From the IMG/VR virus record IMGVR_UViG_3300047325_000170, positions 47,161 through 111,160 of that record: a DNA stretch of 64,000 nt; one strand, written 5' to 3'. This DNA comes from a virus. The notes under the pieces were generated by a model. That model saw only the letters and a list, made by a program, of their open reading frames with translations. It had not been told where the DNA came from and ran no database searches. Of this stretch, positions 1 to 53,376 are shown one piece after another. The position numbers were made by a program, and so were the translations under genes. Positions within the stretch are counted from its first letter, which is position 1. Each line of letters opens with the position of its first letter.

Positions 1-634
1 CTTGCTGCCAGTACCAGCGTTGTAAGGGGTAGATGAAAGCGGAGTCAAACTGATAGGGCGGGATCGATGAACAGAAGGTGCCGATTTCGAGAGCCTTACA
101 CCACAAGACAACAGCAAGCGCGTTCGGGATCTGTTGTCCATCCTTGGTACCGGCCCGGAGGAAGAGCCGCTCGAGCGCGAGGACATGAACCCCATTCGAA
201 TTGAGGTACGTGTTCGTGACGGGCAAGATGGGCGTGCGCTTGAATTGAGCAATCAGACTCGCGATACTGCGATTGTCGATAGGTGGCGAGCTTAAGTAGC
301 CCCCGCTGACGCGACGATTATCGGGATTAGGATCAACTTCTCCGGTCGAGAGTCCGAAGACATCATAGGCACTCGTGACTTCAAACTCGATCTGGACGAT
401 CTTCTCCACAAAGCCGGTGGACATGACAATACCGCCCGTTGTCCGAGGGACCGGTTCGACGTGGTTGTTGGAGACATCCGTGAGAGAGATACGGTACGGC
501 GGGACCGTCGCGGCAAAGTCTCCGATACGAAGGTAGTCTTCGTTACCGATGAGCTCCCCGTCCAAACTGCGGTCAAAGTTGATCGCGAGGAGCTGGGGGA
601 AGTTCTCATCAGAAGGATAGCGGAGGAGAGGCAA
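1..634 (-). CDS. Virion/baseplate-region protein, 5' part (runs off the window; absent from ORF track)
   Basis: Own translation from TTG at 634: MPLLRYPSDENF...YLRIGDFAATVPPYRI...SLIAQFKRTPILPVTNTYLN...; open to position 1; follows the 659..6397 gene on the same strand. Confidence 0.7.
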   Translation of the reverse strand, partial: MPLLRYPSDENFPQLLAINFDRSLDGELIGNEDYLRIGDFAATVPPYRISLTDVSNNHVEPVPRTTGGIVMSTGFVEKIVQIEFEVTSAYDVFGLSTGEVDPNPDNRRVSGGYLSSPPIDNRSIASLIAQFKRTPILPVTNTYLNSNGVHVLALERLFLRAGTKDGQQIPNALAVVLWCKALEIGTFCSSIPPYQFDSAFIYPLQRWYWQQ

Positions 635-658: not shown

Positions 659-3600
659 CTACGAGCGGCCTTTCAACTGATCACTCGCGTCCTTGTCACG
701 GTCGCGGGTCGTGCGGCGTGCGTCTTGCATATCGACGTTCACCTGGGCCCCAATGGCGTTGCTGATCCCGGCACGGAGCGCTTCGGGGCTTGACATGTCC
801 CCGTTCCGACTTGCACGTACCTGGATGTTGTAGCTCTGGGCCGAGCCACCGGTGTCGTTACTCATGACGCGGGTGCGGCCGCCCGTTGGGGGCTTGGGCA
901 TCTCGGGGGCGTCGCGGATCTCCCCGCTCTGTCCGAAGGTCACGGCTGCGGTTGCCAGGGCGCCTGCGCCAAGGCCGGCCATGACCCAGGGGTTCCGGAG
1001 TTTCTCCATCACCCCGCTCATTGAGAGCTTCTTTGCTATTTTAGCACCATCTTCGACCATTGAGCTAGCGTTTTGGGTGACCGGGGCCGAGATCATGTTC
1101 TCGGTGAGGTCCTTGGTCTCGGGCAGCACGGACTCTGGGATGCTTGCCCCGATCTTGGGTTCGGTCAGAGCTTGGCTTGCTGCCTGTGCCTCTTGCATGC
1201 GCTCTTCGGTTGTTCCGGCGGCGTCGATAGCCCCACGTCCAAAGATCCGTGAGAAGATGTCAACCGCGCTCCGGCCGACTTTCTTCCCTGGGTTGGTAAT
1301 AGTGCGCACCCAGTCCCCGGCATTCGCTAGGTCAAGTGGCCCGGCGCCGTTCTTCATGGCGGCTTGAGATTTCCAATTGACCGGTTCGGTAAAGGATTCA
1401 AACCAGGAGATCTCTTTGCCCCACTTGTCAAATTTCGGTTCCGCAGCCTGGCCAGTTTTCACCATGTCTGTGAAAGCCTTGAGGGCTTGGTACTTCCAGA
1501 TATCCTTACCGGCTTCCATGTCCTCCTTGGCGCCCGCAAGGAAGTACTTGTCCATGTAGCTATCAACGTTCATGGAGCCAGCGCTCGTTTGCAGCAAGCC
1601 GCTTTTTTTGTCATAGAGGTCCTGCGTCTTGTCGATCACCGATGCTCCCGCCACGCCCGGGACACTCACGGGCTTGCCAACCGACTGCTGTTGAAGGAGC
1701 GTGGTGAAAGCGTAGGGGTCAAACTGATTGCCGCCCTTCACCTTGAGGAACTCTTCACGAATGATGCCCGCGCCGGTATACTGCAGCGCTGCTAGCTCTC
1801 GTTCTTCTGGACTTGCTGCGGTGTTCTTGATCGTGTTCATGAGCCGGTCTTGGATAGGCGTCGTCACCGCTCCGATGAGACCCTGCGCACTATCAACCTC
1901 GTGCTGCTCGAGGATCCTCTCCATCGTGCTCATCTTTAAGATTGGGAGATTGGTATGATAGTAGTTCTCAAAGTTGGCGAAGAGCTCTGCTGTTTTGGGC
2001 AGGTTCGCTTTGATCTCTTTAAGGGCGGCTTCATGCCCTTCCCACGCTGCAACCTTGGCCGTCCATGCCGATTCGAATTGCCCGTGCAATTTCTGCATGA
2101 TCGCCCGATTGATTTTCGTTCCCTCAAGCATGCCGGCAAGGACAACACGGACCTTGTCACCGTCCGAGTCACCATAGAGTGCCTTACGCAGACTGTCATG
2201 AACGTAGAGGCCAAATCCCTTGATGGTATCGTCGACATAGACCTTTGCGCCCATACGACCGTAGATCGCATTGGGGTCGCGGTGCACGGTTGCCCAGAAG
2301 AACTCTTGTCCCCGCTCGTCTTTCAGCAAGCTTTGGCCCGGGACAGCGCCGATTTGTTTAGCAAACTCCCGAGAAACCTTGGCGCTGAAGGGTTGGAAGG
2401 ACGCATCGTCCGCCCAGAGGGACTGCTGAAGGGGTGCCTTTAAGAAGCCCTTCCCGCTGAAGTCGAGGCTCTTGTAGAGGTTGTTAAGGAGACCCTTCTT
2501 GCCCTTGATCTGCGTTGCAAGCGATTGCTGGTAGGACTCAATAGATTTATTGAGATCATCCAGGTGGGCAAGATTCTCAGGATCGATCCGAGCGCTGAGC
2601 GCAATCACGCGGTCGAGGGCGCGTTGCGATTCGGAGGGACGGTAGCCACCGCCCTTTACGTCGGTGAGATCGGGGATCTCATCGGGGGCGTAGAGCCGCC
2701 GCCCGTTTCCAATATCGATATACTGTGCGCCACGCCCATAGCGTGCGAGGTATTCGTCCTTTGAGAGGACGTTCTTCGGTGCTTGTTCGCGTAGGGCGAT
2801 CTGTTCGGCGGTCATTTCTGTTGCGCCGGTCGCATTCCCGAATTTCATCGGATTTTGGTTGGCTTCATACGCAGAGAGGTATTGGTGGAGCTTGTAGGCT
2901 CTCTTCTGAGTGGTCGGGTTAGCGAGGTAAGAGGTCTTGAGATTCTCAGCCTGGAGAAGGAGACCCTCAGCCTCGTAGGCCTTAATGTCAAAGGCCTGCA
3001 TACCGGCTTCGTTCCGCTTGGGATTGAGGCGTTTGTGCTTTGCGTAGAGCGCTTCTTCCGCTGTCATGTCCGTCGTGGGCGAAGGATCATTGATGACGCG
3101 AGTGGCCAGCATCGACTGTTCATACTGCACGCGGTAGCGGTTCCCGCTCCGTGAGGTGAAGTTGGTTGTTTGGAGTAATTCCATGCCGCCGCTCGGATCG
3201 ATCTTCTGTCCGAGCTCGTTCATCATGCGCTTCGCTTCAAGGGCCTTCGCCACGTTGGTCTCATCAAAGCGATGTTTGCCGGAGATCGCTCGGTTGACGA
3301 CGTAGCCATTCTCGATGCTGAACTTCATACCGAGACCAAGCTGATCGAAGATCTCCTGCAACCCTTGTTGAAGAGCAAGGGCCTTCTGGGGATCCTTGCC
3401 AGCCCGCGCCATCATCATATTCATCTGACCGCGGACGAGCATGCCTGCGCCTTCGTGCTTCTGGAGGGTCTTCACGAGTGGGACGCCAGAGAAGATCTTG
3501 ACGAAGTCATCGTCCCAGGTCGTTTTCCCACCGTTGATGACGACGGTGTTCTTCGACATATCGGCCATGATCTTCATGTTGTGAAGATTGGCCCCGGCCC

Positions 3601-6397
3601 CGAAGGCCTCGTTGATCTCGGGCTTCGCGATGGCCTGTTGTTCGTAGGCCCCCATCACCTGCATCATCTCGTCGGTCCCAAGAGTACGGACAACATTCCC
3701 CGCCTCGTCGAGCTCCTCGCCGCCAACGATGAAACCCATGCCGACATTGCGCTGGTAGGTGGGGTCTGCGAACTCCTTCCCGAGGCGGGACTCTACGCGT
3801 TGGAACTGCGTCATCGCAATCTCGTCCTCTGAATTGCGCAGGGGCACGGCATTGAACTCTTGTTGTGGTCGCGCCCAGGGATTACCACCGGGGACCACGT
3901 CTTGATAGATCGCCGCTGCGACGGGAGATCCCTGACGGCCCGCCTTATTACCAATGATCGCGAGACCCTCGACCCCCTGTCCGGGAGCGGAGCCTTGAAT
4001 CAGCCGCGTGCGAATCCGCTGCAGTTGCCGGTTCTTGACGGACGTATTTGAGCCGATGGTATTGAAGATGCGATTTGCAAAGCTTCCCTCGAAGCCGCCT
4101 CTTTCATCCTCTTTGTTTAAGAACTTCTCTTGAACTGTGTCTCCGCCGGCGCTTTCATAGAGGGCTTTTGCAACGGCATTACCTTCCTTGGGTTCGATAC
4201 GTCCGTCCTCTGCATTTTGAAAGAACTGCCTGAAGAACTTGTCGCGGTTGATGCGACTCTTATCGGTTGTGGCAAAAGCATAGATTGGATTGATTGTCGA
4301 CTCTGGCAAGAGCAAAGCATTATGAACGAGGAGTTGTTCTTGTGTCTGAACGGCCGACGCGGAGATAGCAATCCCGGGATCCTCGGCCGTGGCATCAAGG
4401 ACGCCCTTCCCGAGCTCAGACGTTGCTTGGTCAAAGAGTCCCATGTCGAGTTTGCGGACTGCGCGCTGCATGCGGCGGCCGACCGATGCGAACATGACTT
4501 CGGTGGCTGAGAAAACATGGAGTCCGCCTTGGATGCGGTTCTGCGCCGCAATCTTTCGTGCCTCGGAGTAGTTATTAAATGTCTCCGGTCTGACATGAAC
4601 TGTCTGATATTTCAGTCCTTGGTTGATGAGCTCGTTATCGTCGAGGAACTCGCTTCCCCGGCCCGATTGCCGTAGGACGAGGTCACTGACGCCAAGGTAC
4701 TGGCCGATATATTTGCTCCCGCCGGCCGTTTGGAAGACACCGTTGACGTCTTCAACGGGAAGGAAGAACTGAGCGGCCCCGCCGGTTCCTTTTGAGATGG
4801 CAGCGTTCTCGTGGGGAGCAATGTGAACCCAGACACCGAATCCTTGGCCACCGCCCTTGAGAGGGTTCGACTCTTGGAAGGAATAGGAGACCTTCCACTT
4901 CGCTGCACGCGGGACCGATTTTCCGTCCTTCTGCTCAAAGCTTTGAAAGAACTTGATACGTTCCTGAAGATAGTCGAAGGCGGCTTCACGGTTTCCGCCG
5001 ATGTTGCCGTTCCCGAAGGCGACGATGCCTGTTTTCTTCTCAAAGGTATCAAGGGCCCGAAGCCGCGCGCGTACATGGGCGGCTTCATCGAACTCATTGA
5101 CCTTGCCGGTCCACACTTTCTTGCTACCTTCTTGCTTCATCTCGAAGACTTCGCGTGAGGTAAGCTGCGCGATGTGGGACTCAAGACCACCGGGGATCTC
5201 TTCCGTACCCATCTTGAGGCCCATATGCTGGCCTTGTTGTTCAAGGTTTTCAAAGTGCCGGCGGAAGAAGCCAAAGGCTCCCTCTCCGGTGAAGGCTTCG
5301 CGCCGTAAGACATCCGCCCCGTGGGGCATGCCAAGGCCATTCACTGAGGTTTGCATCGCCTCGAGAACAGGGTTCATAAAGCGCTGCCACATCTTCTTGC
5401 GCAGAGCAGCGCGCATCGCTGGATGCTGGGCCGGATCTCCCTTGATCCGGCCATTCTTTACCAGTCGTTGCCATTGGTTCTCAAAGGCGGTCTCGAAGGT
5501 GTTGTAGATTGCCCGGCTCATCGCTACATTCTGGGGAGCGACGAAGCCCTGCATCACCCGGTTATAGAGGCCCTGTGCATCCTTCGTGTAGACGCCGCCG
5601 ATCCCGCGACTGCGGATCTTCGGGACGATCCCGCCATCGTCGGTTGTGACCGATCCGCGCTCGAGCAGTGCCTTGAAGCCGTCGGGATTGAGGAATTCGT
5701 GGGGCGACTTCTCATCATTCGTCACGCCACTGAGGGCCATCATCGTGCGCTGATGAGTCATGATGAGATCCTGGAAGCGGATCTGGCGCGCGGTCGCCTT
5801 GGTCTGTGCCATGTTAAACATGAGCTGACCGACATCTTCGGGGTTCATGGTTGCAGAGAAGCTCTTGCCAAGCTTTCCTATGGCGCCCTGGGGGACGATG
5901 TTCATCGCCACCTGTCCGCTCTCGGTGAGCGAGGAGCTAACCTTATAGACTCCAAACTGCTTGGTCAACTCGGGGTCCATGAAGCCAGCAGCACGTAGAG
6001 AATCCGTCATGACGTAATAGCCAGAAGGAAGCTCACCTTGCGCGATCTTGGCAGCGGTCTGAGCGCCGGCTGTTTTCATCTCCTCAAGGCGTCCCGCAGC
6101 ATTGGCGGCCCTCTCCGCCTTCGTCTCGGGAGTGAAACGGAAGTCACGTAAGGCAACTCCCATGTCCATGTCGCGGATCTTCCGCCGCGCCGAGGTGAAC
6201 TCAGGGAGATCCTTGGTGGAGGGAACCTTTGTGATCATGGCTTGCCAGACATTTGTGCCGCCCTCTTTAACAAACTTCCAGAGGTTTGCCGTCGCCAGAT
6301 AGCCGCTGCCCCGCATCTTCATATAGACCCCACTCTTGGTGGTGTCTGCGCCTTGGGCTGGAGCGTAATTCTTAACTACCTTGTCGTAGAGAGACAT
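659..6397 (-). CDS. Giant protein (1912 aa), putative virion-associated two-barrel RNA polymerase
   Basis: HRDPNA (2270-2284) followed ~35 aa later by LYGDSDGDKVRV (GDSDGD at 2156-2173), matching the R-x-P...DxDGD pattern of the catalytic double-psi beta-barrel; lies inside the structural operon. Confidence 0.65.
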   Translation of the reverse strand: MSLYDKVVKNYAPAQGADTTKSGVYMKMRGSGYLATANLWKFVKEGGTNVWQAMITKVPSTKDLPEFTSARRKIRDMDMGVALRDFRFTPETKAERAANAAGRLEEMKTAGAQTAAKIAQGELPSGYYVMTDSLRAAGFMDPELTKQFGVYKVSSSLTESGQVAMNIVPQGAIGKLGKSFSATMNPEDVGQLMFNMAQTKATARQIRFQDLIMTHQRTMMALSGVTNDEKSPHEFLNPDGFKALLERGSVTTDDGGIVPKIRSRGIGGVYTKDAQGLYNRVMQGFVAPQNVAMSRAIYNTFETAFENQWQRLVKNGRIKGDPAQHPAMRAALRKKMWQRFMNPVLEAMQTSVNGLGMPHGADVLRREAFTGEGAFGFFRRHFENLEQQGQHMGLKMGTEEIPGGLESHIAQLTSREVFEMKQEGSKKVWTGKVNEFDEAAHVRARLRALDTFEKKTGIVAFGNGNIGGNREAAFDYLQERIKFFQSFEQKDGKSVPRAAKWKVSYSFQESNPLKGGGQGFGVWVHIAPHENAAISKGTGGAAQFFLPVEDVNGVFQTAGGSKYIGQYLGVSDLVLRQSGRGSEFLDDNELINQGLKYQTVHVRPETFNNYSEARKIAAQNRIQGGLHVFSATEVMFASVGRRMQRAVRKLDMGLFDQATSELGKGVLDATAEDPGIAISASAVQTQEQLLVHNALLLPESTINPIYAFATTDKSRINRDKFFRQFFQNAEDGRIEPKEGNAVAKALYESAGGDTVQEKFLNKEDERGGFEGSFANRIFNTIGSNTSVKNRQLQRIRTRLIQGSAPGQGVEGLAIIGNKAGRQGSPVAAAIYQDVVPGGNPWARPQQEFNAVPLRNSEDEIAMTQFQRVESRLGKEFADPTYQRNVGMGFIVGGEELDEAGNVVRTLGTDEMMQVMGAYEQQAIAKPEINEAFGAGANLHNMKIMADMSKNTVVINGGKTTWDDDFVKIFSGVPLVKTLQKHEGAGMLVRGQMNMMMARAGKDPQKALALQQGLQEIFDQLGLGMKFSIENGYVVNRAISGKHRFDETNVAKALEAKRMMNELGQKIDPSGGMELLQTTNFTSRSGNRYRVQYEQSMLATRVINDPSPTTDMTAEEALYAKHKRLNPKRNEAGMQAFDIKAYEAEGLLLQAENLKTSYLANPTTQKRAYKLHQYLSAYEANQNPMKFGNATGATEMTAEQIALREQAPKNVLSKDEYLARYGRGAQYIDIGNGRRLYAPDEIPDLTDVKGGGYRPSESQRALDRVIALSARIDPENLAHLDDLNKSIESYQQSLATQIKGKKGLLNNLYKSLDFSGKGFLKAPLQQSLWADDASFQPFSAKVSREFAKQIGAVPGQSLLKDERGQEFFWATVHRDPNAIYGRMGAKVYVDDTIKGFGLYVHDSLRKALYGDSDGDKVRVVLAGMLEGTKINRAIMQKLHGQFESAWTAKVAAWEGHEAALKEIKANLPKTAELFANFENYYHTNLPILKMSTMERILEQHEVDSAQGLIGAVTTPIQDRLMNTIKNTAASPEERELAALQYTGAGIIREEFLKVKGGNQFDPYAFTTLLQQQSVGKPVSVPGVAGASVIDKTQDLYDKKSGLLQTSAGSMNVDSYMDKYFLAGAKEDMEAGKDIWKYQALKAFTDMVKTGQAAEPKFDKWGKEISWFESFTEPVNWKSQAAMKNGAGPLDLANAGDWVRTITNPGKKVGRSAVDIFSRIFGRGAIDAAGTTEERMQEAQAASQALTEPKIGASIPESVLPETKDLTENMISAPVTQNASSMVEDGAKIAKKLSMSGVMEKLRNPWVMAGLGAGALATAAVTFGQSGEIRDAPEMPKPPTGGRTRVMSNDTGGSAQSYNIQVRASRNGDMSSPEALRAGISNAIGAQVNVDMQDARRTTRDRDKDASDQLKGRS

Positions 6398-9300
6398 TAG
6401 GCCGCCTGCTGAATCTGCATGTTCACTTGATGTTGCTGAGCATTATTGGGATAGAGCTGGATATCGATATCGCGAAGCCCCATACCATCGAGGACGCGAT
6501 GGAGGTTCGCTTTGATGTTGCCGGGGGTCTCGCGGAAGGGACGGATGTCTTTGATCCCAAGCTCACTGACTCGCTCTTCATCCTGCGGCCAGAAGCCTTG
6601 GGAGGTCATATCGAGACCCTCTTGCTTCGTGACAACCAGACGGTAGTCGTCAAGTGAGTTCTCAGCCTGCCAACCATTCCAGTCCGCGGGCGGCAGGTAA
6701 TGGTGCTTGAAGTACTCGATGAGTTCTGGCTTCTCATCGACCTTTAGGCCATAGGCGGCTTGCAAGAAACGGCGCTCGTTCTTGGGCACCATCTTGAGGA
6801 TCTCTTTCCGCTCAGGCCCCGGGGCCTTGAGGAACGCCTGGAAGAACTCACGCTCCTTGGGGTCAAGTGAGAGCAAGACCTTTTGGAGATCGCTACCTGG
6901 CTTCGCACCATAGAGTGTCGTCTGCGCGACCTGACGATACTGGATCGCAAGGATATCATCACGGGTGAGCTTCAGCTCCTTGCGATAGGACTGCAGCTCG
7001 GAGATCTCTTGGTTGATCTCGTGCAAGCGCTTCGCTTGCTTCTTCTTGTCGCCCTTAATGATGATGCGCCGCTTCTCTTGCCGTAGTTGGGAGATGCGGT
7101 GCTTGCGATCATCGCCTTCGCGTTCGTAGCGGTCGATGATCGCGCCGATGTCTTTGTGCTCATGTTTGAGAACGTAGGCGCGCGTCTTCTCGTAGAGCCC
7201 CTCGTACTTCATGTACTTAAGAATGTCGAAGTACTCTTTGGTCTCGCGCTCTTTCTTACGATACTCCGGTATGGGATCTTGTGACACCTTATGGCTGAAG
7301 GCAAGCGCGCCGGCAATCGCCATCGAAGCACCCATCAAGATGGCGCGCGACTTCAACTGGATCTTCCCAAGCTTGAAGCCAAATTTGGTGTTGGGGAGAC
7401 GCTCAATGAGCTTCCCGCCGTAGAGGGGGCCAACCCCGAGGAAGTACCCGATAGCACCGGCAACCGCCATACCGGCGATGCCTTGTGCGGCAGCTGATTC
7501 AAACGAGGGGAAGATGTAATCCCGGAAAGGGTGCTTCCAGTCTTGCCAATCCTTACCGTAGACTTGCGTACGCTTATAGAGTTCGATAGGTGAGTCAAGG
7601 GCCATGTACTTATTGTGAAGCAGGGTGATCGGCAGGTGCCCAATGCGCTCAAGGGCTCCGGCCCAGGCGATCTCGTTGCTCGTGTACTGTGCATGCATAC
7701 CAGCGGGCGAACTATCTTGGGTCTCTGAGCCGTAGTCCTGATCGATAGCTTCGCGGTTGAGCATCCGCCCATGGCTAAAGACGACAGCGTGGATGGTGTT
7801 GAGGGTATCCTTCGAGACACGCTGCGCTTGATCGTGAGCATAGCCGATCTTCACCGTACGCCCCGGCCCGAGATTCTGGCTGAGCCAGGTGGTCGCATCG
7901 GCATCGCTGCGGACGTGAACACCCGCAAGGCGGATCGGATTGTCGGGGTGCTCGAGCGTCGTGAAGGTATTATTGTCGATCATCTTATCGATATGGACGG
8001 TCTCATAGTCGAGCTGTGCATACCGGAGATGATAGGGTGCCATCGTTACGCGGTGCTTGCGCTGCGTAACCTGTTCCTTGACGGTCTTGATGCGTGCTCG
8101 ATCTTCGTCGGAGAGGACGCCTTCGGGGAGATGCACGAGATAGTCGCGGTAGCGCCGGTACTGTGAGGACCAGGGCGCCACATCACCGAGGATCTCGAGC
8201 TTCGTGACATCATCGTAGAACTGGCCTTGGCTCCAAAGGCCTTCTTTCGTCTCCTTGGCGATCTGCTTGCGGACATCGTCGACCTTTGCAATCGTCTTAT
8301 CGTAGAGATCCTGATCGAAGGTCAGCTGCGCGGAACGCTGCTCATTTGGATTGTCGCGGTTGACGTAGACGATGCCGCCCTGCTTTGCGCCAAGCTCGGC
8401 CATGTCCAGGTTGAGTTGTTCGCGATGGCGTGCATCAATCGTGTCATGCAGTTCGCGATAACGCTTCTGCGAGAGGGTGTGGATCTCAATTGGGTTGCCG
8501 TCCTTGGTGACAAAGTCGACGGTTCCGGAGATCCCAAGCTTCTTGTCATCGTAACTGACGTCACGCTTGCCACCCGGCGACTCGCCGAGAAGCTCATGCT
8601 TGATCTTCTCATGCAGCTCTCCACCGCGTTCAGCGATTTCCTGTGAGTAGGCATAGAAGGGCTCGTGGTCTCCCGTTAAGAGTCCATAGAGTCCGTCGCG
8701 AGAGTAGCCGATCTGCGTGCTGCGTAGCTTGAGGTCCATGGCTGGTATTCCATGGAGTTTCTCGTAGGCCGCACCTGGCAGGCGCGCTTCACCGTTCGGG
8801 ATCGTGACATAGGGGTCGCCGTGGAGGAAGTCGAGGAAGTAGGCGGGGTCTTCACCGCCCTGCCCCGGCAACCAGGTGGGCATTGTATTCCGGATCGGAT
8901 TGTATTCGGTGTTGGAGTGATAGCGGTGGGGCAGGAAACGACGGAAGGCTTCTGAGAGCCCCGGTGTCGGCAGCATGCCGCCGGTGTTCCAGTTATCCCA
9001 GTACTGCCGCTCGAACGAGGTCATCCGTCCTGCTGATTGCAGGGTCGGCAAGTTGGAGTAGGGATAGTCCACGGTGCTCGCCGCGGCGAAGCCGTAGATA
9101 CCGCCGATTTCCGTTAAGGAGTAGTAGCCAAGACCGGCCTGATAGCGTGGATCGTTGGGATTGATGAGTCGCTTGAGGGAGCGGGGATCATTCGGATCCT
9201 GCGACTTGAAGAGCCCCGGCGCTTGCGTGCCTTCGAGCATACGCCCCGGCGTGAAGCGCTGCGCTGCCTTGAGCTTCTCGTTGGACTCACGGATCTTTTG

Positions 9301-11583
9301 GCGTGTCTTCGCCTTGGCCGAACCGTAGGGCGCAATCGCCCGCGCACCCTTCCCGTAGCTGCCGCGCTGGACGCCTTCGTCATAGCCCGCATCGCTGTCG
9401 TCAGCGTCGTCTTGGGTATCGTCATTGATCGCAGCAATCGCCCGATCAGAACCGGGCAGGCCCACCGCGCCCATCGGCAGGATCTGGCCCGAGGCGGTGA
9501 CAAAGCCGGTGAGTTCTTGGTTAGCAGCCTTTTCTTTGATTTGCTCGTTGAGGGTGCGAAGATCTCCGCGGTACTTGGGATTGCGTTCGCCCTGGTGGGG
9601 GCCAGAGATCAAATACGGAAGATCCTCCGCATGCATGTATTTCGTCGGCTTGAGGATCGGGCCGAGAATTGGGTTGAGGAGGGCGCCCCAGGGTGAAGTG
9701 GGCTCAAAGAGCGGGGCGGAGATCGGATAGGGGCGGTCCTTGTAGTGCTTCTTCTCGTAGTGATAGCGATCAAAGAGGAAGTGCTGCGCCCAACTGAAGG
9801 GATGCGTCGGTGTGGGGAGGGCGGCATTAGCGTAGTATTCATCAACTGAACCGAAAAGGGTGTCGGTCTTGGTGATGTCGCCAGCTAAGGCTTGACGATG
9901 AGCATTGGGAGCAAAGTACTGGATGCGCTCGCCGCGGAACGGCGTGCTCGATCCGAAGCTCCACCAGCGGCCCTTGCGGACCGGGACATAGCCACTGTCC
10001 TGTTGCTCCTTGAGTTCCTCTTGGCTGAGGCCAACCTTCGCATCGACGAAGGGGTGGGCGATGTGAGAGAGGACACCGCCGGAGAGCTCATCGACATGCT
10101 TGAGCCACGGACTGATCCCAAGCTTGTCCTTAAGTCCCGCCCACCAGAGCTCACCCTTATCCTTGGCGAGCTGTGCTTGATCGGTCGGGCGGCGCCCCAT
10201 GAGCTTGCCGAGTTCATCGTTGAGATAGCCTGCGTAGAAGATCCCCGCCGCGATAGGCAAGGCCCGCTTGAGCATGACATTCGCAAAGTAGGCGGTCGGA
10301 CCCTTAAAGGCTAGCTTCCCGAGCTTGAACTCGGTGGATGATCCCGACATCGCAAGCCATGGGAAGAGGCCATTGTAGGCCATGCCCGTGTTGATACGCT
10401 CGAGGAGATGATAGGCGGCAAAGGTGCCGGTGTTGATCTCGGTTCCGCGGGTTGCCCCGAAGAACATGTTCTTGAGACCAGTGGGCGTGAACTCCATGGC
10501 CCGTGCCACCCCGAAGGGCAGCTGATCAGCAAGGCGTCGTGCCTCGGGAAGATCCTCGACTGCAATGTTTCCGAAGCGGGACTGCCAGAACTTCTCGCGG
10601 CCCTCTTTGCTCCAGATTGCCGCGCCGCGCTCATTGAGGCCAACGTCGAAGAAGCGTTGCGCACGAGCTCGTAAGCTGGTGTTTCCGGGATCGCGAATCG
10701 CAGCGATCTTCTCGAGCTTCTCATTGAGCGTCTCAAGGTTGAAAAGCCGCACCCCTTCTTCCTGAGAGATTCCCCGCTCTTCGCGGATAACATCTCCCCG
10801 GATCCTTGAGATGAGTTTTTGATTGCGACTAATGCGAGCATGGATATTGCCGACATCATAGCTCTCGCCGAGGAGATCGCCACGCATGCGCTCGATGGCG
10901 TTCTTCTTCTCGCCAATCCCCGCCTTACCATAGAGCCAGTACTTGCCTTCAATGGTATGGATCTTGCTCCACAGTAGCTGTGGAGGCGCCCCTTCGCCCG
11001 GGCTATCAAGAAGGGCTTGAACGACGTGAACCTTACCACCGACGAAGTAGGCACGGGCGTGCTCTGAGATCCCGCGCTTCTGGAGTTCTTCAGGGGTGAG
11101 GAGGCCGAGCTTGCCGATTCTCCCGAGGGCTTGGAACTGAGAGGTCGACTTGCCGGCCGTCCCATACATCTCACGGAGTTCAGGACCGAAGGCGAGCTTA
11201 TCGGCGATCTGGAGCGGCAGGAAGGTCTGAGACGCTTTCTGCCACGCGGTCATCAGCGGCGAGCGGCTAATGAACATCCCCAGGGCATGGATGCTATTGG
11301 CTTCAGGGGCCTTGCCCTGCAGGTGGTTGTAAAGGAGATTGGTTTCGATGGTCCGCCGCTGCATGGCACGCAGGGCAGTCGTTTGCTTCATCCAGCCAGG
11401 TGGCGTGAAGGCGAGGCCGCCCTGTTGGAAGGCGACCTGCATCTCCGCAGCAAGGGTCTTATCAGCCCACGGCTTGAGGCCCTTGCCCAACGCAAAAAGA
11501 CCGCCGACAGTAGCTGCTCCGGTGAGGAGCGAACGGCGGCGGTCGTCTTCGCTGTTGGGGGGGTTGTAGCCGTACTCAGCCAC
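6397..11583 (-). CDS. Giant virion protein (1728 aa) at the tape-measure position, with PD-(D/E)xK-like and thermonuclease-like domains
   Basis: GISGTVDFVT..PIEIHT...HREQLNL..GGIVYVNRDN (Cas4/RecB-like pattern); VHIDKMIDNNTF...PIRLAGV (SNase-like); hydrophobic segments; directly after the tail chaperones. Confidence 0.6.
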   Translation of the reverse strand: MAEYGYNPPNSEDDRRRSLLTGAATVGGLFALGKGLKPWADKTLAAEMQVAFQQGGLAFTPPGWMKQTTALRAMQRRTIETNLLYNHLQGKAPEANSIHALGMFISRSPLMTAWQKASQTFLPLQIADKLAFGPELREMYGTAGKSTSQFQALGRIGKLGLLTPEELQKRGISEHARAYFVGGKVHVVQALLDSPGEGAPPQLLWSKIHTIEGKYWLYGKAGIGEKKNAIERMRGDLLGESYDVGNIHARISRNQKLISRIRGDVIREERGISQEEGVRLFNLETLNEKLEKIAAIRDPGNTSLRARAQRFFDVGLNERGAAIWSKEGREKFWQSRFGNIAVEDLPEARRLADQLPFGVARAMEFTPTGLKNMFFGATRGTEINTGTFAAYHLLERINTGMAYNGLFPWLAMSGSSTEFKLGKLAFKGPTAYFANVMLKRALPIAAGIFYAGYLNDELGKLMGRRPTDQAQLAKDKGELWWAGLKDKLGISPWLKHVDELSGGVLSHIAHPFVDAKVGLSQEELKEQQDSGYVPVRKGRWWSFGSSTPFRGERIQYFAPNAHRQALAGDITKTDTLFGSVDEYYANAALPTPTHPFSWAQHFLFDRYHYEKKHYKDRPYPISAPLFEPTSPWGALLNPILGPILKPTKYMHAEDLPYLISGPHQGERNPKYRGDLRTLNEQIKEKAANQELTGFVTASGQILPMGAVGLPGSDRAIAAINDDTQDDADDSDAGYDEGVQRGSYGKGARAIAPYGSAKAKTRQKIRESNEKLKAAQRFTPGRMLEGTQAPGLFKSQDPNDPRSLKRLINPNDPRYQAGLGYYSLTEIGGIYGFAAASTVDYPYSNLPTLQSAGRMTSFERQYWDNWNTGGMLPTPGLSEAFRRFLPHRYHSNTEYNPIRNTMPTWLPGQGGEDPAYFLDFLHGDPYVTIPNGEARLPGAAYEKLHGIPAMDLKLRSTQIGYSRDGLYGLLTGDHEPFYAYSQEIAERGGELHEKIKHELLGESPGGKRDVSYDDKKLGISGTVDFVTKDGNPIEIHTLSQKRYRELHDTIDARHREQLNLDMAELGAKQGGIVYVNRDNPNEQRSAQLTFDQDLYDKTIAKVDDVRKQIAKETKEGLWSQGQFYDDVTKLEILGDVAPWSSQYRRYRDYLVHLPEGVLSDEDRARIKTVKEQVTQRKHRVTMAPYHLRYAQLDYETVHIDKMIDNNTFTTLEHPDNPIRLAGVHVRSDADATTWLSQNLGPGRTVKIGYAHDQAQRVSKDTLNTIHAVVFSHGRMLNREAIDQDYGSETQDSSPAGMHAQYTSNEIAWAGALERIGHLPITLLHNKYMALDSPIELYKRTQVYGKDWQDWKHPFRDYIFPSFESAAAQGIAGMAVAGAIGYFLGVGPLYGGKLIERLPNTKFGFKLGKIQLKSRAILMGASMAIAGALAFSHKVSQDPIPEYRKKERETKEYFDILKYMKYEGLYEKTRAYVLKHEHKDIGAIIDRYEREGDDRKHRISQLRQEKRRIIIKGDKKKQAKRLHEINQEISELQSYRKELKLTRDDILAIQYRQVAQTTLYGAKPGSDLQKVLLSLDPKEREFFQAFLKAPGPERKEILKMVPKNERRFLQAAYGLKVDEKPELIEYFKHHYLPPADWNGWQAENSLDDYRLVVTKQEGLDMTSQGFWPQDEERVSELGIKDIRPFRETPGNIKANLHRVLDGMGLRDIDIQLYPNNAQQHQVNMQIQQAA

Positions 11584-11595: not shown

Positions 11596-12342
11596 TTACG
11601 ATCTGTTCTGTTTGAGACTTGCCATCAGTTGCTGACGACGTTGTGCTTTCTCGAACTTTGGTAGGACTTCACTGAGCGGCTTGAGGGCTGCTCGATCTGC
11701 GCCGTCGATGACCCCGAGGGTTGATCCACTCTCGTCGGCGACCTGTTGATTCTTGTTGAGGCGCTCTTGAAGTTCGGCCATGCGTTCTTTGTTATTGAGG
11801 CCACGCGGTGGCTTGATTGGTTTCTCTTCTTCTTTCTTACTCTGCTGGATCTTCAGCCCCGGCGTCGTCGCTTCAAGGATCCAACAAGCCCGTGCATAGG
11901 CATCGAAGAGTTGATCGTGACTCCAATCACTGTAGCGGGCGAAAAGCCCCCCGCCATCAAAGGCATAGTCGATCATCGTCTCCATCTGAGCTTCAAAGTC
12001 TTCAACGATACGCCCCTGGTAGAAGCCGAGGCGTCCTTCCATATCGATGATGCCGGAAGAATTGAGGACCTGAGCGCAGATAGCATCCGGTACACCGGCC
12101 GGTCCATCTTGGACTGCGGGGGCATCTGCCTTCCATCCCTCGGGCCAGAGGAGCGTTGTCTCGCAGACTTCTTCGGCGCGTTCGAGCTCGTCTTCGATAT
12201 GAATAATAGCTCGGTACTCACGCCGCGAGAGTCGCCGGTAGATGTAGATCTGCTCGACGTGCTGGAATAAGAAAATAGCCCCGTAGTCAGCAATCCAACT
12301 ACGGAAGCGTTCCTCCGGCGGCGCTTGCGGCGCTGCCTCCAC
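11596..12342 (-). CDS. Putative tail assembly chaperone 2
   Basis: Between tube genes and giant protein; YRRLSRREY...LWP...PAG matches the adjacent upstream ORF. Confidence 0.55.
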   Translation of the reverse strand: MEAAPQAPPEERFRSWIADYGAIFLFQHVEQIYIYRRLSRREYRAIIHIEDELERAEEVCETTLLWPEGWKADAPAVQDGPAGVPDAICAQVLNSSGIIDMEGRLGFYQGRIVEDFEAQMETMIDYAFDGGGLFARYSDWSHDQLFDAYARACWILEATTPGLKIQQSKKEEEKPIKPPRGLNNKERMAELQERLNKNQQVADESGSTLGVIDGADRAALKPLSEVLPKFEKAQRRQQLMASLKQNRS

Positions 12343-12345
12343 TCC

Positions 12346-12822
12346 TTAGAGCTGAATGCTCTCCGCGACGGGTTGGAAAGCGGAGTAGGCATAGAACTCT
12401 TGCATCACGACTTGGACAGCACCGGCCGGCATGTTCTGCAACACGGTGCGGTCCGAGCAATCCGGGAAGAGACAGATCTTCGTGAAGAGGGTATCTTCGC
12501 GTTGATCGGGATCTTCGATAGCGGAAATAAGCTTCTGAACGGCCTTCCACTCAAGGCGCGTCATCGTGCGATAGACACATCCACTGCCATCGGCGAAGAG
12601 CACGCAGAGCACCTTGCTGTGAGGATACTTAAGCTTGATTTCCTCGACCTGAGAGCGCGTGGGGCCGCCTTCATAGAGAGGCTCATCCTGACCGAGCGTC
12701 TCAAGGACGCTGGCGGTCTTCGGTGGCTCTTCGGCAACGACGGGGGCAACGACGGGGAATTCTTCAGCGAAGGGAATTGCATCGAGGGCAGCTTGCTGTT
12801 CGGCGGTTAACTCTTCAGACAA
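12346..12822 (-). CDS. Putative tail assembly chaperone 1
   Basis: Position; YRTMTRLEW...LFP...PAG; paralogue of 11596..12342. Confidence 0.55.
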   Translation of the reverse strand: MSEELTAEQQAALDAIPFAEEFPVVAPVVAEEPPKTASVLETLGQDEPLYEGGPTRSQVEEIKLKYPHSKVLCVLFADGSGCVYRTMTRLEWKAVQKLISAIEDPDQREDTLFTKICLFPDCSDRTVLQNMPAGAVQVVMQEFYAYSAFQPVAESIQL

Positions 12823-12852
12823 AACACATCAAACCCTTGGGAGATCGTGCAC

Positions 12853-13554
12853 TTACAAGCTTACGATAGAGCGATTGGGCGCATTGATATCAGTAGCGAT
12901 GAACTGGAACATCTCTTGGATGTTTTCACCAGAGAGGTCGATGCGTTGGCCGACCGACATCAGGCTGACTCCCTCAATCGTACGGACGCGTCCGCTATTA
13001 CGAGCAGTGATGTCAATACTGTCGATATCTCCGTAGACGAGCAAGATCTGAAAGTTCGTATTAGTGAAGTAAGGAACACGCGAGAGATCGGTTTGCCCTT
13101 GGTTGATGATCGTCTCGAGATTGCCCCAGTTGATGTTCTTTTGATTCTGGATCCACTGTTGATAGCCGGTCGGGTCCGTCTGGGGGTCCGGCATCGCCGT
13201 TGGGGCATAGGGATTCGGTTGAAGGGTCTGCGAGGCGAGCGGCGCCGCTTCTTGGTCATTGATGCTATTGACCAACTCATGGAGGTAATCGCCCGGCCGC
13301 AGGTTGATACAGAAAGACCCCTGGACGATACGCGTCCCTGGGATAATCCTATTAGCAGTATAGGATGCGTAGGAATAGATTGGGTATTGGTTTTCGGTCA
13401 ACGCGCATTGAAACTCACAGATTTCGTCGATGTAATTGCCAGCCAAGAAGAGCGAGACGTCAACCCCGGAGAAGTATTCAACAGGATAGACTTCGTTGTA
13501 GGCCGGTGTGTAGGGGTTGACCTGCGCCCCGCGGTAGGGAGTGATGAAGGACAT
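12853..13554 (-). CDS. Tail tube-like protein (paralogue 3)
   Basis: YFSGVDV...YPIYSY...GTRIVQGSF aligns by eye to the two upstream tube-like ORFs. Confidence 0.6.
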   Translation of the reverse strand: MSFITPYRGAQVNPYTPAYNEVYPVEYFSGVDVSLFLAGNYIDEICEFQCALTENQYPIYSYASYTANRIIPGTRIVQGSFCINLRPGDYLHELVNSINDQEAAPLASQTLQPNPYAPTAMPDPQTDPTGYQQWIQNQKNINWGNLETIINQGQTDLSRVPYFTNTNFQILLVYGDIDSIDITARNSGRVRTIEGVSLMSVGQRIDLSGENIQEMFQFIATDINAPNRSIVSL

Positions 13555-14204
13555 TAGGCGATGACGGCCCCGGAACTAACCACCGTCGGATAGGCTGGTT
13601 GGAGGGGAACGTAGTCGAGAGCGATGTAGGACATCTGCTCCTCAAGGATCAGGTCATCGATACCGGCAGTTATGCCATTCGTGACAATCTCAACGCCGAT
13701 GATCTTCGCGAGCGATGACTGCCCATACTCATTGACCATGGTGATTGTGATATCGAAAGGGGGAACTTCGTCCGCCTGCATGCGGGCAATGACTGCGGGA
13801 AGGTTTCCCGTTGCCGTCGAGTAGTTCGTATTGACCTGTTGGTAGTAGCTCGAAACCGCGTTCTCGACGGCGTAGAGGCTCTCTCGGTCAAACATCGTAA
13901 AGATCAGAGATCCCGCAATGGTCCGGCAGCCACGGGTGAAGCCTCGGGGGTTGATGGACTTTAAGGCGCGGACCGGCACCTTGTCACGGTGGGTCGAAAT
14001 CGAGACCGTCTGGAGGGTCGCAATCGTGATCGGAGCGGTGATCAGGGGCGAGGGGTTAAAACCCACCCCCGGCTGATACTGGTCATTGGTCAGCATCGGG
14101 ACCGTAATCGAACAGACGATGTCGCAGCCGGCGTAGCTCGAGAAGAGCGACGTCATGTAGGCGTTGGGGCCAGTCGGGAGCATGGCGGGCAGGTAGCTAG
14201 ACAA
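13554..14204 (-). CDS. Tail tube-like protein (paralogue 2)
   Basis: SYAGCD...LQTVSISTHRDKVPV...RGCRTIAGSLIF...PPFDITITMVNEYG. Confidence 0.65.
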   Translation of the reverse strand: MSSYLPAMLPTGPNAYMTSLFSSYAGCDIVCSITVPMLTNDQYQPGVGFNPSPLITAPITIATLQTVSISTHRDKVPVRALKSINPRGFTRGCRTIAGSLIFTMFDRESLYAVENAVSSYYQQVNTNYSTATGNLPAVIARMQADEVPPFDITITMVNEYGQSSLAKIIGVEIVTNGITAGIDDLILEEQMSYIALDYVPLQPAYPTVVSSGAVIA

Positions 14205-14240
14205 GGCTCATCCTAGAGGTGGAGCTAAACTACGCTAGCC

Positions 14241-14274
14241 AAAACAAAGAAGGGAGAGCCGAAGCTCTCCCTTC
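14241..14274 (-). terminator. Intrinsic terminator after tail tube gene
   Basis: 11-bp stem GAAGGGAGAGC/GCTCTCCCTTC, 4-nt loop, followed by TTTGTTTT on the minus strand. Confidence 0.85.
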
Positions 14275-14305
14275 CAGAGTATCACAAAAGCGGGGTCTTT
14301 GCCAG

Positions 14306-15076
14306 TTAGGACGTTTTGCCGGTCTGGCCGTTCGGGGTAACCGAGGACTGGCTGATGGGCGAGCTGGTGTTGGCGATACCGCTCGTGTAGAAGCCAGGGC
14401 GCAGACGCTGTGCCTTACGGGCGATGAAGGTGCAGGCACGCTCGAGGTTGATGTCGTCGATGGAGACGCCGGTTCCCTCGTTGAGGATTTCGACGTCTTG
14501 GATGATCATGTTCGCGGCGTTGCCATATTCGTTCGCGAAGGTGATCGTGATGTCGAAGGGTGGGACCTGATCTTCGTAGGTCCAGAACTCACCAGGCTGG
14601 TCGCCGTGGAGTTGGACGAAGGGCGTGCTGTTCGCGGCAACCTGGGCGGCGTTGGCAGCATTGAACTGCACGACCGTCGAGAGGTTGTTGAGTGTCGAGT
14701 TAAGCGGGAGACCGTTGTAGACACCGGCTTGGTTGACCAGGTTCGTTGGCTGGGCGTTGACCTGGATCACACCCTGATTGCCGGCTGCCGTGTACTGTGG
14801 GATCGTGCCGAATTGAGCAGCTGCCTGCTCCATTTCGACGAGAAGCGCGTCGCGGTCAAACATGACGAAGACGAGATTCCCGGCGATGCCACGCTTACCG
14901 CGGCTGAAGGAGAGCGGGTCGGGGTCCCCGAGGACATAGATGGGACCCTTCTCACGCTGAATGTTAATCGTGATCGCCTGGAGCTCTCCGATGACCTGCC
15001 CGTTGAAGGTGGCAATGGCGTCCGCACCCGAAAAGCTGGTGTAGGTGCCGTCAGTGCCCAGATTGAAATTTGCCAA
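14306..15076 (-). CDS. Major tail tube protein
   Basis: Immediately after sheath; SFSGAD...ELQAITINIQREKGPIY...RGKRGIAGNLVF...PPFDITITFANEYG; followed by a terminator. Confidence 0.75.
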   Translation of the reverse strand: MANFNLGTDGTYTSFSGADAIATFNGQVIGELQAITINIQREKGPIYVLGDPDPLSFSRGKRGIAGNLVFVMFDRDALLVEMEQAAAQFGTIPQYTAAGNQGVIQVNAQPTNLVNQAGVYNGLPLNSTLNNLSTVVQFNAANAAQVAANSTPFVQLHGDQPGEFWTYEDQVPPFDITITFANEYGNAANMIIQDVEILNEGTGVSIDDINLERACTFIARKAQRLRPGFYTSGIANTSSPISQSSVTPNGQTGKTS

Positions 15077-15129
15077 GAGTCATACCTCTAGATAGAGCTA
15101 CCTGAGCTCCAGGTTCTAGCACTAACCTA

Positions 15130-16809
15130 TTAGGTTACTCCACCTTGTTGGCTGCTGCTGCCGGACTGGGTGATCGCTCCCGGTGCAGTGAGCGAGATCG
15201 TGACGTAGATCTTCCGGATCTGCAGAGCGGGAACGAGCTGCAGGTTGATCTGGAAGGTACCGGCGATCTGGTTCGCTGCCGTAGCGTTGATGTTCCAGGT
15301 GTAGTCAAGCAGGGCACCTGAGCTCTTGAGAGCCGCGAGTGCGGAGTTGACGGCGGTACCCATGGCGTTAATCGTAGCGGGGTTGGCTGCTCCGCCGATG
15401 AAGCCGGCGCAAGCCTGACGGACCGCTTCCATCGAGGCGTAGGTGATACGCAGCGTGGAGAGCTTGGCGAAGTCTCCACCAGAGACTTCGTAGGTCTGGT
15501 CAGCAACCGTGCGGACCGATCCCTGCTGGGTGTTGAAGACCACGAAGCCCGGACCGGAACCGACGAGGGTGTTGATGACCGAGGCTCCGTAGTTGTAGGA
15601 GAGGCCGACAACCGAAGAGAGGGTCTTGTTCGTCATACCGATTTGCGGCTGGATGGTCGTCGACTTTCCAGCGTAGGTTGCGGCGCCGTCCATGACGTAG
15701 TTGCCAAGGCGCTGGTTGTTGAGGATCGGGTCGGGACCGACGCAGATGTTGAGCAAGTACCCGATGTTCAGAGCCGCACCCGCCGTGGTCAAGACCTCAG
15801 CGTTTGAGACCGCCGGGCTGTTCGTGTTGTAGCCCGAGAGGTAGTTGAAGTTGTACTTTGTTAACGCCAACTGATTGCCGCGACGAACCGCGTTCGTGAA
15901 GGTCGGCACCGAGAGGGGAGCAACTGAGATCACACCGTAGCAGGACTGGGTATCGACCGAGACGCGCGCACAGAACTGCGCGAGATTCTGACCGAACCAG
16001 ACCGTATCGCCGCTGTTTGCATTGGCGATGGTTGGGTTGCCGGAGGCATCGAGCGCGTAGGTGGGCTGCAGGTAAGCACCCAGGGGGCAGACGACGTCCA
16101 CGCCGTAGGTCTCGAGCTGCATGTAGGCCGCAACGAGCGCGTCATTGTACTGCGCATCGGTGAGGTTGGTGCCGTCGTTACCACCGCTGAAGTTGGTCGG
16201 GCCAGAGTTCACAACGTTGATCGTGGCGAGGGGGTTCCCTGACGTGCTCGCCTGCGTTGCGACAACGTTGATCGTCGAGAAGTTAACCGCGTTCATCAGG
16301 TCGCCCCAGATGCCGCCCACCGGGATCGGGAAGGCGTGCGCGACGCCATCGAGGGTCGTGATGGTCAGAGATCCAGCGCCTGTGCCGGGAGCAACAACCG
16401 TTGCCGTCAGGCCATTGTACTTCACGCCGGGGTAGTTCGCGGTGAGGGTCACGCTATTCGCGGGGGTGACCGTGTCGGTGATAACAACTGAAGAACCCGT
16501 GCCCGAAACGCGCACGAGGTTGATGTTGGTGCAGCCAGCTTGGAAGGCTTCGTAGACGCCGCGAGTGAGCGACTTCGCCAGAATCGGCGCAGCCGTAATC
16601 GACGGCGCTGCCGTGGTGATCCCGAAGATCTGCTCGGCTTGAGCAATCGAGGTGATCTGGATCGGCGTGTAAAGGGGGCCGTCCGTCGCCACACCAAGCA
16701 GCAAGACTGCGTCGGTGAGATTCTGCGGCGGTTGTGCAACCTTGAGGCCGAAGTCCTGAATCTGGGCTACAAAGCCTGGAGTATTCGGGTAGATGTCGGA
16801 GATTGGCAA
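15130..16809 (-). CDS. Tail sheath protein
   Basis: N-terminal PGFVAQIQD, LLGVATDGP..P, FSGGNDG, C-terminal LRI...FIG...LVPALQIRKIYVTISL as in contractile sheaths; start placed at TTG 16809 behind AGGAG. Confidence 0.85.
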   Translation of the reverse strand: MPISDIYPNTPGFVAQIQDFGLKVAQPPQNLTDAVLLLGVATDGPLYTPIQITSIAQAEQIFGITTAAPSITAAPILAKSLTRGVYEAFQAGCTNINLVRVSGTGSSVVITDTVTPANSVTLTANYPGVKYNGLTATVVAPGTGAGSLTITTLDGVAHAFPIPVGGIWGDLMNAVNFSTINVVATQASTSGNPLATINVVNSGPTNFSGGNDGTNLTDAQYNDALVAAYMQLETYGVDVVCPLGAYLQPTYALDASGNPTIANANSGDTVWFGQNLAQFCARVSVDTQSCYGVISVAPLSVPTFTNAVRRGNQLALTKYNFNYLSGYNTNSPAVSNAEVLTTAGAALNIGYLLNICVGPDPILNNQRLGNYVMDGAATYAGKSTTIQPQIGMTNKTLSSVVGLSYNYGASVINTLVGSGPGFVVFNTQQGSVRTVADQTYEVSGGDFAKLSTLRITYASMEAVRQACAGFIGGAANPATINAMGTAVNSALAALKSSGALLDYTWNINATAANQIAGTFQINLQLVPALQIRKIYVTISLTAPGAITQSGSSSQQGGVT

Positions 16810-16921
16810 GTCACTCTCTCCTTGAGAGGAGATCAACAAACTCTAACTTACCCTGCATCTAGCGAACAGGCTCTTCAGCCCTAGCGCTCAGGTAATCTTG
16901 CGTGTACCTCTGGAGAGAGGC

Positions 16922-53226: not shown

Positions 53227-53376
53227 GTGAACGCACTCTACTCGTTCTTCGACTCCGTCGCTCCCACCATCATCCGCCTCGGCTTCGGTACCGGGCTCGT
53301 CACCGTCATCTGGTACGCTGCTACCTACCTCTTCTCATCTATCGTACATAGTCTGGTCCATGCAGTGGGGGGCTAG
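53227..53376 (+). CDS. Small membrane protein (49 aa)
   Basis: GTG behind GGAG; hydrophobic. Confidence 0.6.
   Translation: MNALYSFFDSVAPTIIRLGFGTGLVTVIWYAATYLFSSIVHSLVHAVGG

Follow-up and report, generated by a model that had tools for sequence, protein, structure and literature searches.

A candidate single-chain two-barrel RNA polymerase in the tape-measure slot of a contractile-tailed jumbo phage

The locus and its polymerase-like motif

The DNA analysed here (the window) is a 64,000-nucleotide stretch. It spans bases 47161-111160 of the IMG/VR virus record IMGVR_UViG_3300047325_000170, which is linear, 111,160 bp long and judged ~70% complete. Close to the start of the window, on the minus strand, lies a giant gene, P0001, which occupies the tape-measure slot of a tail gene cluster and whose product carries a short motif resembling the active site of cellular RNA polymerase (RNAP). 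The gene, an open reading frame (ORF) without a single cysteine codon, and the elements recognised within it, including two candidate double-psi beta-barrels (DPBBs), are listed below from the N- to the C-terminus of the protein.

659..6397, minus strand: P0001, whole gene (ORF and translation); 1912 residues, 0 Cys; candidate virion single-chain two-barrel RNAP in the tape-measure slot
3071..3802, minus strand: predicted beta/Rpb2-like barrel (DPBB-B candidate), residues ~866-1109; family-conserved K942, K949, K976 and K980-H981
2459..2950, minus strand: predicted helical connector between the barrels, weakly clamp-like, residues ~1150-1313
2051..2452, minus strand: DPBB-A, the predicted catalytic barrel, residues 1316-1449
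2273..2281, minus strand: R1373-D-P1375, putative counterpart of the NRAP element of beta-prime; R1373 invariant in 7/7 aligned sequences
2156..2170, minus strand: D1410-S-D-G-D1414, putative Mg-binding catalytic triad; three Asp and the Gly kept wherever the site is covered
1736..1927, minus strand: two long conserved helices after DPBB-A (AQGLIG..., IREEFLKVK), residues 1491-1554; bridge-helix/trigger-loop candidates
932..994, minus strand: Gly/Ala-rich hydrophobic segment NPWVMAGLGAGALATAAVTFG, residues 1802-1822; possible membrane-insertion element; W1804 invariant in the family
662..895, minus strand: C-terminal module apparently shared with gp146 of Bacillus phage 0305phi8-36, residues 1835-1912, recognised by profile score and co-linear alignment

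A preliminary description of this DNA, made from the letters and ORF translations alone, had pointed to P0001 as a candidate injected virion RNAP, and its reading of the gene holds up. The 1912-residue ORF is real, is read from the minus strand and contains the quoted peptide, with HRDPNA from residue 1372 and DSDGD at residues 1410-1414. The R-x-P element was said to stand about 35 residues before DxDGD; the distance from the Arg to the first Asp is 37 residues in P0001, compared with 38 in gp96 and gp64 of Thermus phage P23-45, 39 in gp66 of the crAss-like phage phi14:2 and 35 in Escherichia coli beta-prime. The hydrophobic pattern flanking the motif is the same in P0001, gp96, gp64 and gp66. 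Likewise, the described TAATG coupling to a giant upstream gene (1728 residues) is confirmed by the junction between the two genes, which reads GGCCTAATGTCT (within ...CCTAATGTCT...) and contains the overlap.

The combination of R-x-P with D-x-D-[GI]-D 28-45 residues further on occurs once in the 35,418-residue proteome of the 111-kb record, in P0001. Chance alone would give a bare DxDGD some 0.4 times in a proteome of this size (an estimate); the weight of the argument therefore rests on conservation of the motif and on the predicted fold, both of which hold.

Relatives and conservation of the motif

An exhaustive HMMER search of 1.84 billion representative proteins with the core of P0001 (residues 440-1620) recovered six relatives (P0002 to P0007), all metagenomic and one of them on a 211,787-bp contig. 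When 5.8 billion proteins were searched through a word index, a single homologue at 29% identity was returned, and other word-indexed homologue searches gave nothing beyond the query. P0001 has no match in Pfam or PHROGs and none by tblastn against 50,697 phage records, and relatives were looked for in IMG/VR, GTDB genome contigs and JGI metagenome contigs, where none was found.

Loss of the aspartates in homologues was one of two outcomes that, according to the preliminary description, would refute its reading; all three are kept in every homologue that covers the site; R-x-P is likewise kept in all homologues covering it. The motif block is by far the most conserved stretch between P0001 and P0002, ~80% identical in proteins that share 29% identity overall. 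It reads DSDGD in three members, ADSDGD in P0007, ADFDGD in P0006 and NADFDGD, the cellular beta-prime signature, in P0004; P0004 and P0006 are the two most divergent members of the family. Four regions stand out by identity: residues 1316-1449, where the nearer homologues reach 49-55%, residues 866-1109, residues 1491-1560 and the final 110 residues. Across the relatives, identity in the motif domain spans 21-55%, and DPBB-A is the best-conserved region.

Predicted two-barrel fold

Residues 860-1660 were modelled with AlphaFold, template-free, from a ten-row alignment, giving a mean predicted local distance difference test (pLDDT) of 59.7 with 294 residues at or above 70; the single-sequence model reached a pLDDT of 37. 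The other refuting outcome named, no DPBB fold around the motif, is not borne out by the model: a beta/Rpb2-like barrel is predicted at residues ~866-1109 and a DPBB bearing the DxDGD loop at 1316-1449. Foldseek returned 79 matches in the PDB at E<=1e-3, and in each of the best 50 of the 79 the protein matched is the largest subunit of a multisubunit RNAP (beta-prime, Rpb1, plastid RNAP or the AR9 non-virion RNAP, nvRNAP). A second aligner, independent of Foldseek, gave two separate signals, one for a beta-like and one for a beta-prime-like barrel. The beta-like match lies 300-550 residues before the motif, has the highest pLDDT of the model and is specific to second-largest subunits.

In single-chain two-barrel RNAPs, the barrels are arranged as beta-like, connector and beta-prime-like (PMC10770324), and the order in the P0001 model is the same. 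Within the beta-like barrel, K942, K949, K976 and K980 are near-invariant in the family and may include counterparts of the two conserved basic residues that DPBB-B contributes in this superfamily (beta K1065/K1073). The two long helices that follow DPBB-A (H632-666 and H671-692 in model numbering) are 26-38% identical among family members, E1548 and K1552-V-K1554 being near-invariant, and we regard them as bridge-helix and trigger-loop candidates by analogy with the order of elements in PMC10770324. The structural alignment to gp96 runs across these 1491-1554 helices, yet its root-mean-square deviation is 11.8. No peptidase domain was found in P0001 by Pfam or in the model.

Position in the tail module

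The terminase and sheath, at 25-36% identity, show the phage to be distantly related to Moorella phage MTATph1, Bacillus phage 0305phi8-36 and Acinetobacter phage ME3. Its tail module is collinear, gene for gene, with that of 0305phi8-36 from sheath to hub, and P0001 stands in the slot of gp146. The neighbouring genes are as follows.

11596..16839, minus strand: sheath through two tail chaperonins, corresponding in 0305phi8-36 to sheath gp139, tube gp140, tube paralogue gp141, gp142 (a gp142 homologue) and the two chaperonins gp143/gp144; Pfam sheath match and BLASTP matches to gp139-gp144 and to the ME3 and Moorella counterparts
6397..11583, minus strand: 1728-residue gp145 homologue, upstream of P0001 and TAATG-coupled to it; BLASTP 30% identity over 1473 residues, E=0; 0 Cys
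1..634, minus strand: start of a 2231-residue gene downstream of P0001 that runs off the window; homologue of hub gp147, Moorella coding sequence (CDS) 32 and ME3 gp037, BLASTP E 1e-29 to 3e-40

P0001 thus lies downstream of the tail chaperonins and before the gp27-like hub homologue, a position that is collinear in 0305phi8-36, ME3 and the Moorella phage, and the gp145 homologue intervenes between chaperonins and P0001 as it does in 0305phi8-36. In the latter phage gp145, gp146 and gp147 are annotated as virion proteins by mass spectrometry. The hub gp147 is T4 gp27-like (PMC2147016), and gp146 was named the tape measure solely because its length fits the tail (PMC2147016). An ordinary tape-measure candidate was not found in the rest of the tail module, where, P0001 aside, the stretch from the chaperonins to the baseplate holds only the homologues of gp145 and of the hub, an SLT lysin and small ORFs.

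0305phi8-36 encodes a separate QDE-1-like RNAP, gp99, elsewhere in its genome. No PF05183 or gp99-like gene, nor any other RNAP, was found in the 111 kb of this ~70% complete record, and the idea that P0001 is the paralogue of a gp99-like RNAP in the same genome is accordingly not supported.

Several side observations concern the structural genes around P0001 and its counterparts. Residues 976-1111 of the 1728-residue protein (window 6397-11583, minus strand) match phrog_1706, 'CRISPR/Cas system associated' (E 1.7e-10), which suggests that this probably ejected protein may carry an embedded nuclease-like domain. In MTATph1, the tape-measure-slot gene (L011:513-7869) is apparently split by a transposase gene (L011 4539-6026), with CDS27 matching the middle of gp146 and CDS31 its C-terminus. 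Between the capsid and tail genes of the window is a 3306-residue ORF (23091-33011, minus strand) with no Pfam match and faint PHROG matches, roughly where 0305phi8-36 has large virion and curly-fibre proteins. Finally, window 42444-44631 (minus strand) encodes a ClpB-like AAA+ ATPase (AAA_2 and ClpB_D2-small, E 8.5e-41) and a calcineurin-like phosphoesterase inside a head-morphogenesis block, with portal-region genes on one side and capsid genes on the other.

A C-terminal module probably shared with the tape-measure-slot protein of 0305phi8-36

P0001 is the positional counterpart of the tape-measure-slot protein of this lineage, and its C-terminus is probably homologous to that of gp146. A hidden Markov model (HMM) of the family C-terminus scores the last 135 residues of gp146 at 15.4 bits, compared with 9.4 for the best of 2000 shuffles; the controls (four giants of this phage, and 0305phi8-36 gp147) gave no score. 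P0001, gp146 and Moorella CDS31 align co-linearly here through a hydrophobic W-x-x-AG-[LI]-GA stretch, GG[RK]T, Y-x-[IV]-x-V-[RK] and N-x-x-[MI]-x-D-x-R, and a hydrophobic segment similar to that of P0001 is present in gp146. The likeness is confined to the last ~75-110 residues, with no similarity between the body of P0001 and gp146 by BLASTP or hhalign. The Pfam family PF10145 appears weakly in one family member (E 0.74).

The preliminary description had argued that position would mislabel this polymerase candidate as a tape measure. The tape-measure slot stands; 'mislabel' is possibly too strong, as the C-terminal module is shared with gp146 and P0001 may for that reason be a tape-measure-slot protein and a polymerase at once, like gp96.

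Absence of cysteine

Cysteine is absent from P0001, from its 1728-residue neighbour and from each of the five full-length family members, which together amount to ~10,000 residues. It is also absent from gp145 and gp146, from Moorella CDS26, CDS27 and CDS31, from ME3 gp035 and gp036, and from P23-45 gp96; one or two occur in each of crAss gp65, gp66 and gp67. Among other proteins of the phages compared, the hub proteins contain 8-12 cysteines and the non-virion RNAP gp99 contains 10, and the proteome average is 0.77%. The trait groups both slot proteins, which lack cysteine in four phages of this lineage, with the experimentally established ejected RNAPs. It would fit passage in an extended state through the tail tube and cell envelope, and may offer a simple signature, or predictor, of tail-lumen or ejected proteins.

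Comparison with known polymerases

The two precedents cited in the preliminary description, phi14:2 gp66 (bioRxiv 10.1101/2020.03.07.982082) and P23-45 gp96 (PMC10770324), are real. P23-45 gp96, which also occurs in P74-26, G20c and TSP4, is a virion two-barrel RNAP fused to a tape measure (PMC10770324; PDB 8h2m/8h2n). Like P0001, it is encoded in the tape-measure position of a tail operon. It belongs to a non-contractile siphovirus, however, whereas P0001 comes from a contractile-tailed phage. The layout also differs: of the 5002 residues of gp96, the N-terminal ~1200 form the RNAP, and behind them comes a long tape measure that includes a metallopeptidase and transmembrane domains, while the predicted core of P0001 lies at ~866-1554 of 1912, with ~350 residues and one hydrophobic segment after it. 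A clamp is lacking in gp96, and the P0001 model has a weakly clamp-like connector. In hhalign, gp96 against the P0001 family gives E 0.087, on a path that covers the motif only.

phi14:2 gp66 is a crAss-like virion RNAP (bioRxiv 10.1101/2020.03.07.982082; PDB 6VR4) and a giant single-chain two-barrel protein of the particle, as P0001 would be; it has 2180 residues, and its motif lies at 1361-1365 compared with 1410-1414. It too is flanked by two giant virion proteins, is overlap-coupled to its giant upstream gene and is poor in cysteine (2 Cys). Unlike P0001, which is a tail-slot protein, gp66 belongs to the capsid or cargo of a podovirus and has the motif DFDID. It is absent among the structural matches listed. 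No similarity is detectable between gp66, gp65 and gp67 and P0001 and its neighbours (hhalign E 0.71, 0.17 and 0.37, respectively), and homology of the flanking giants to crAss gp67 and gp65 is not supported by these insignificant values (E 0.37 and 0.17).

Compared with gp146, P0001 has the same slot, the same freedom from cysteine, the same C-terminal hydrophobic segment and the same terminal module; gp146, in contrast, has no DxD[GI]D and no R-x-P...DxDxD. As to gp99, its PF05183 score is 69 bits, and no P0001 family member matches PF05183 at E<=10. Multisubunit RNAPs (beta/beta-prime, Rpb2/Rpb1, those of the nucleocytoplasmic large DNA viruses (NCLDV), phiKZ and AR9) are the best or near-best structural matches to both barrels; P0001 differs from them in being one polypeptide, beta-like then beta-prime-like, with no evident alpha/omega or sigma-type partners. 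By analogy, P0001 would be akin to gp96 and gp66 in its working while belonging to neither family by sequence.

We found no tape-measure-slot RNAP of contractile-tailed phages in the papers searched, among them a 2021 comparative genomics study of jumbo phages, a 2026 review and papers that mention ME3. For such phages, the 2021 study names no enzymes other than the YonO-like ones of 0305phi8-36 and Clostridium phage c-st.

A candidate counterpart in phage ME3

The best matches to the P0001 model in BFVD, a library of predicted viral protein structures, span 570-840 alignment columns.

BFVD, 'minor tail protein' of Siphoviridae sp. ctnpt50: E 1e-8, best match
BFVD, unnamed entry: E 4e-8
BFVD, uncharacterised ME3 protein, two-piece entry: E 6e-5, 574 columns
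BFVD, protein of Microcystis phage MaMV-DC: E 5e-4

NCLDV RNAP subunits and LEF-9 rank next. As a side observation, the uncultured siphovirus ctnpt50 (BFVD entries A0A8S5SD80_1 and A0A8S5SEF1) also encodes a protein that bears the name RNA-dependent RNA polymerase, an arrangement that recalls P23-45 with its two polymerases.

From its size, the ME3 entry is presumably gp036 of Acinetobacter phage vB_AbaM_ME3 (L015:4173-8984), a cultured jumbo phage; gp036 is annotated as a hypothetical protein, has 1603 residues and is encoded between the gp145 and hub homologues. Like P0001 it is overlap-coupled and cysteine-free, and it carries R-E-P ... GGDHDQD at residue 1217, with Gln as the fourth motif residue. 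There is no BLAST match between the family and gp036, and hhalign is insignificant (E 0.32); the best hhalign path is co-linear, placing HRDP on SREP and GDSDGDKVRVV on GDHDQDQAAVL. gp036 is likely an unrecognised RNAP, a role not described for it in the papers searched that mention ME3.

Discussion

We propose that P0001 is very probably related to cellular RNAP, as a one-chain protein that has diverged far from it, judging from its motif and predicted fold, and that the phage likely carries it in the particle and injects it to start its own transcription, as suggested by synteny, the absence of cysteine and the C-terminal module. Taken jointly, these would make P0001 a single-chain two-barrel DNA-dependent RNAP, packaged and ejected, in the tape-measure slot of a jumbo myovirus related to 0305phi8-36. 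We hold this combined reading to be probable, though well short of assured; the catalytic activity, the DNA template, the packaging, the delivery route and the timing are inferred.

In such a scheme, a polymerase core (beta-like barrel, connector, catalytic barrel and bridge/trigger-like helices) would be embedded in a protein of the tape-measure slot. P0001 would be made late, together with the tail, and its C-terminal ~110 residues would probably anchor it in the tail lumen at the hub. Contraction of the sheath would then expel it through the tube, with or ahead of the DNA and together with the gp145 homologue. Once ejected, it would transcribe the first phage genes independently of the host RNAP.

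Several results weigh against a polymerase. Scanning every family member against Pfam at E<=10 brought up no RNAP family, leaving no sequence link to known RNAPs; PDB sequence searches (phmmer with the protein, hmmsearch with the family profile) returned nothing relevant; and hhalign of the family against gp66, gp96, gp64, gp99 and gp146 was insignificant throughout, which counts the same way for the RNAPs among them. The model itself is only moderate (pLDDT 59.7, predicted template modelling score 0.34, ten-row alignment), its catalytic loop falls below a pLDDT of 50, and AlphaFold may have been steered by the beta-prime-like motif. Foldseek template modelling scores are low (~0.1), as the matches are local. 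Moreover, only ~350 residues follow the core, which is short for measuring a long tail.

Four other explanations were considered. P0001 could be a structural tape-measure or ejection protein that retains a catalytically dead two-barrel relic, its barrels serving as a scaffold or as a DNA-binding plug. Its tape-measure slot and gp146-like C-terminal module agree with this, and polymerase chemistry is evidently dispensable in the slot, as the slot proteins of 0305phi8-36 and the Moorella phage are without any DxD[GI]D; the variant DHDQD of ME3 gp036 points in the same direction. We nevertheless regard a dead relic as unlikely. All three Asp, the Gly and R-x-P persist in the relatives covering the site, at 21-55% domain identity, with DPBB-A the best conserved of their regions; the divergent members converge on the canonical NADFDGD rather than decaying; and gp66, whose fourth motif residue is Ile, is an active enzyme (bioRxiv 10.1101/2020.03.07.982082). 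P0001 could instead be an active RNAP that is encoded in the tail operon by chance, and acts late or in the next round after its synthesis without being packaged; no other RNAP was found in the 111 kb, so that P0001 may be the sole polymerase of the phage. This, too, appears quite unlikely: the gene is translationally coupled in a late structural operon between homologues of two virion proteins, the product lacks cysteine as ejected and tape-measure proteins do and as the non-virion gp99 does not, and it has a conserved C-terminal hydrophobic segment and a module in common with the virion protein gp146. A polymerase made late would also be useless for early transcription unless carried over.

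The activity, rather than the location, might be other than supposed. The fold class is common to QDE-1-type RNA-dependent RNA polymerases (RdRPs) and the archaeal DNA polymerase PolD (PMC10770324), a language-model look-up placed a PF05183 RdRP cluster at rank 5 (score 0.87), and both QDE-1 and gp66 use single-stranded templates. A QDE-1-like RdRP, a primase-like enzyme or a PolD-like DNA polymerase is very unlikely in our view: PF05183 is not matched at any threshold, DNA-dependent multisubunit RNAPs dominate the structural matches with no PolD among the matches listed, and the characterised phage members of the class are all DNA-dependent RNAPs. Finally, a chance DxDGD in a giant protein could have biased the AlphaFold model, an objection fed by the estimated chance frequency of the bare motif (~0.4 per proteome), by the moderate confidence and shallow alignment behind the model, and by the insignificance of every sequence-profile comparison. 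Such an artefact is highly improbable. Motif bias is no explanation for the beta-like match, which lies far upstream, has high pLDDT and is specific to second-largest subunits; the motif block is far better conserved than the proteins that contain it (~80% against 29% identity); and the ME3 slot protein, unrelated in sequence, has its own R-x-P...DxDxD and presumably a matching predicted fold in an independent library.

The sequence CACG-N5-6-AGDGG occurs 19 times in the window compared with 4.3 expected, and in the whole record 17 of its 20 sites lie on the plus strand in a 10-kb block of small plus-strand genes (window 53057-63124). Start codons follow these sites at a distance of 10-80 nt, a hairpin and T-run often come directly before them, and the CCAC...GTGG ends are self-complementary. 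We consider the sequence a candidate phage-specific promoter or operator and a possible target of P0001. A broader and much more tentative suggestion, which we put forward as doubtful, is that a branch of 0305phi8-36-like phages (this phage, its metagenomic relatives and ME3) swapped the body of the tape-measure-slot protein for an RNAP that is delivered through the tail and starts at CCACG-N5-6-AGTGG (17 copies). If true, both the delivery route and the promoter class would be undescribed for any contractile-tailed phage, and the replacement would point to an evolutionary link joining tail-lumen proteins to the virion RNAPs that crAss-like and Thermus phages carry. As ME3 is cultured and has a likely counterpart, the proposal of an injected polymerase in this slot is directly testable.

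Virion single-chain two-barrel RNAPs have been shown experimentally only in two systems that differ greatly, the crAss-like podoviruses and one Thermus siphovirus group. An RNAP in the tape-measure slot of contractile jumbo phages would suggest that injected polymerases of the cellular type are far commoner than annotation shows, since such genes are now labelled 'hypothetical' or 'tape measure'. It would also touch on how large phages escape dependence on host RNAP, how an enzyme of >200 kDa passes through a tail tube, and the deep evolution of two-barrel polymerases.

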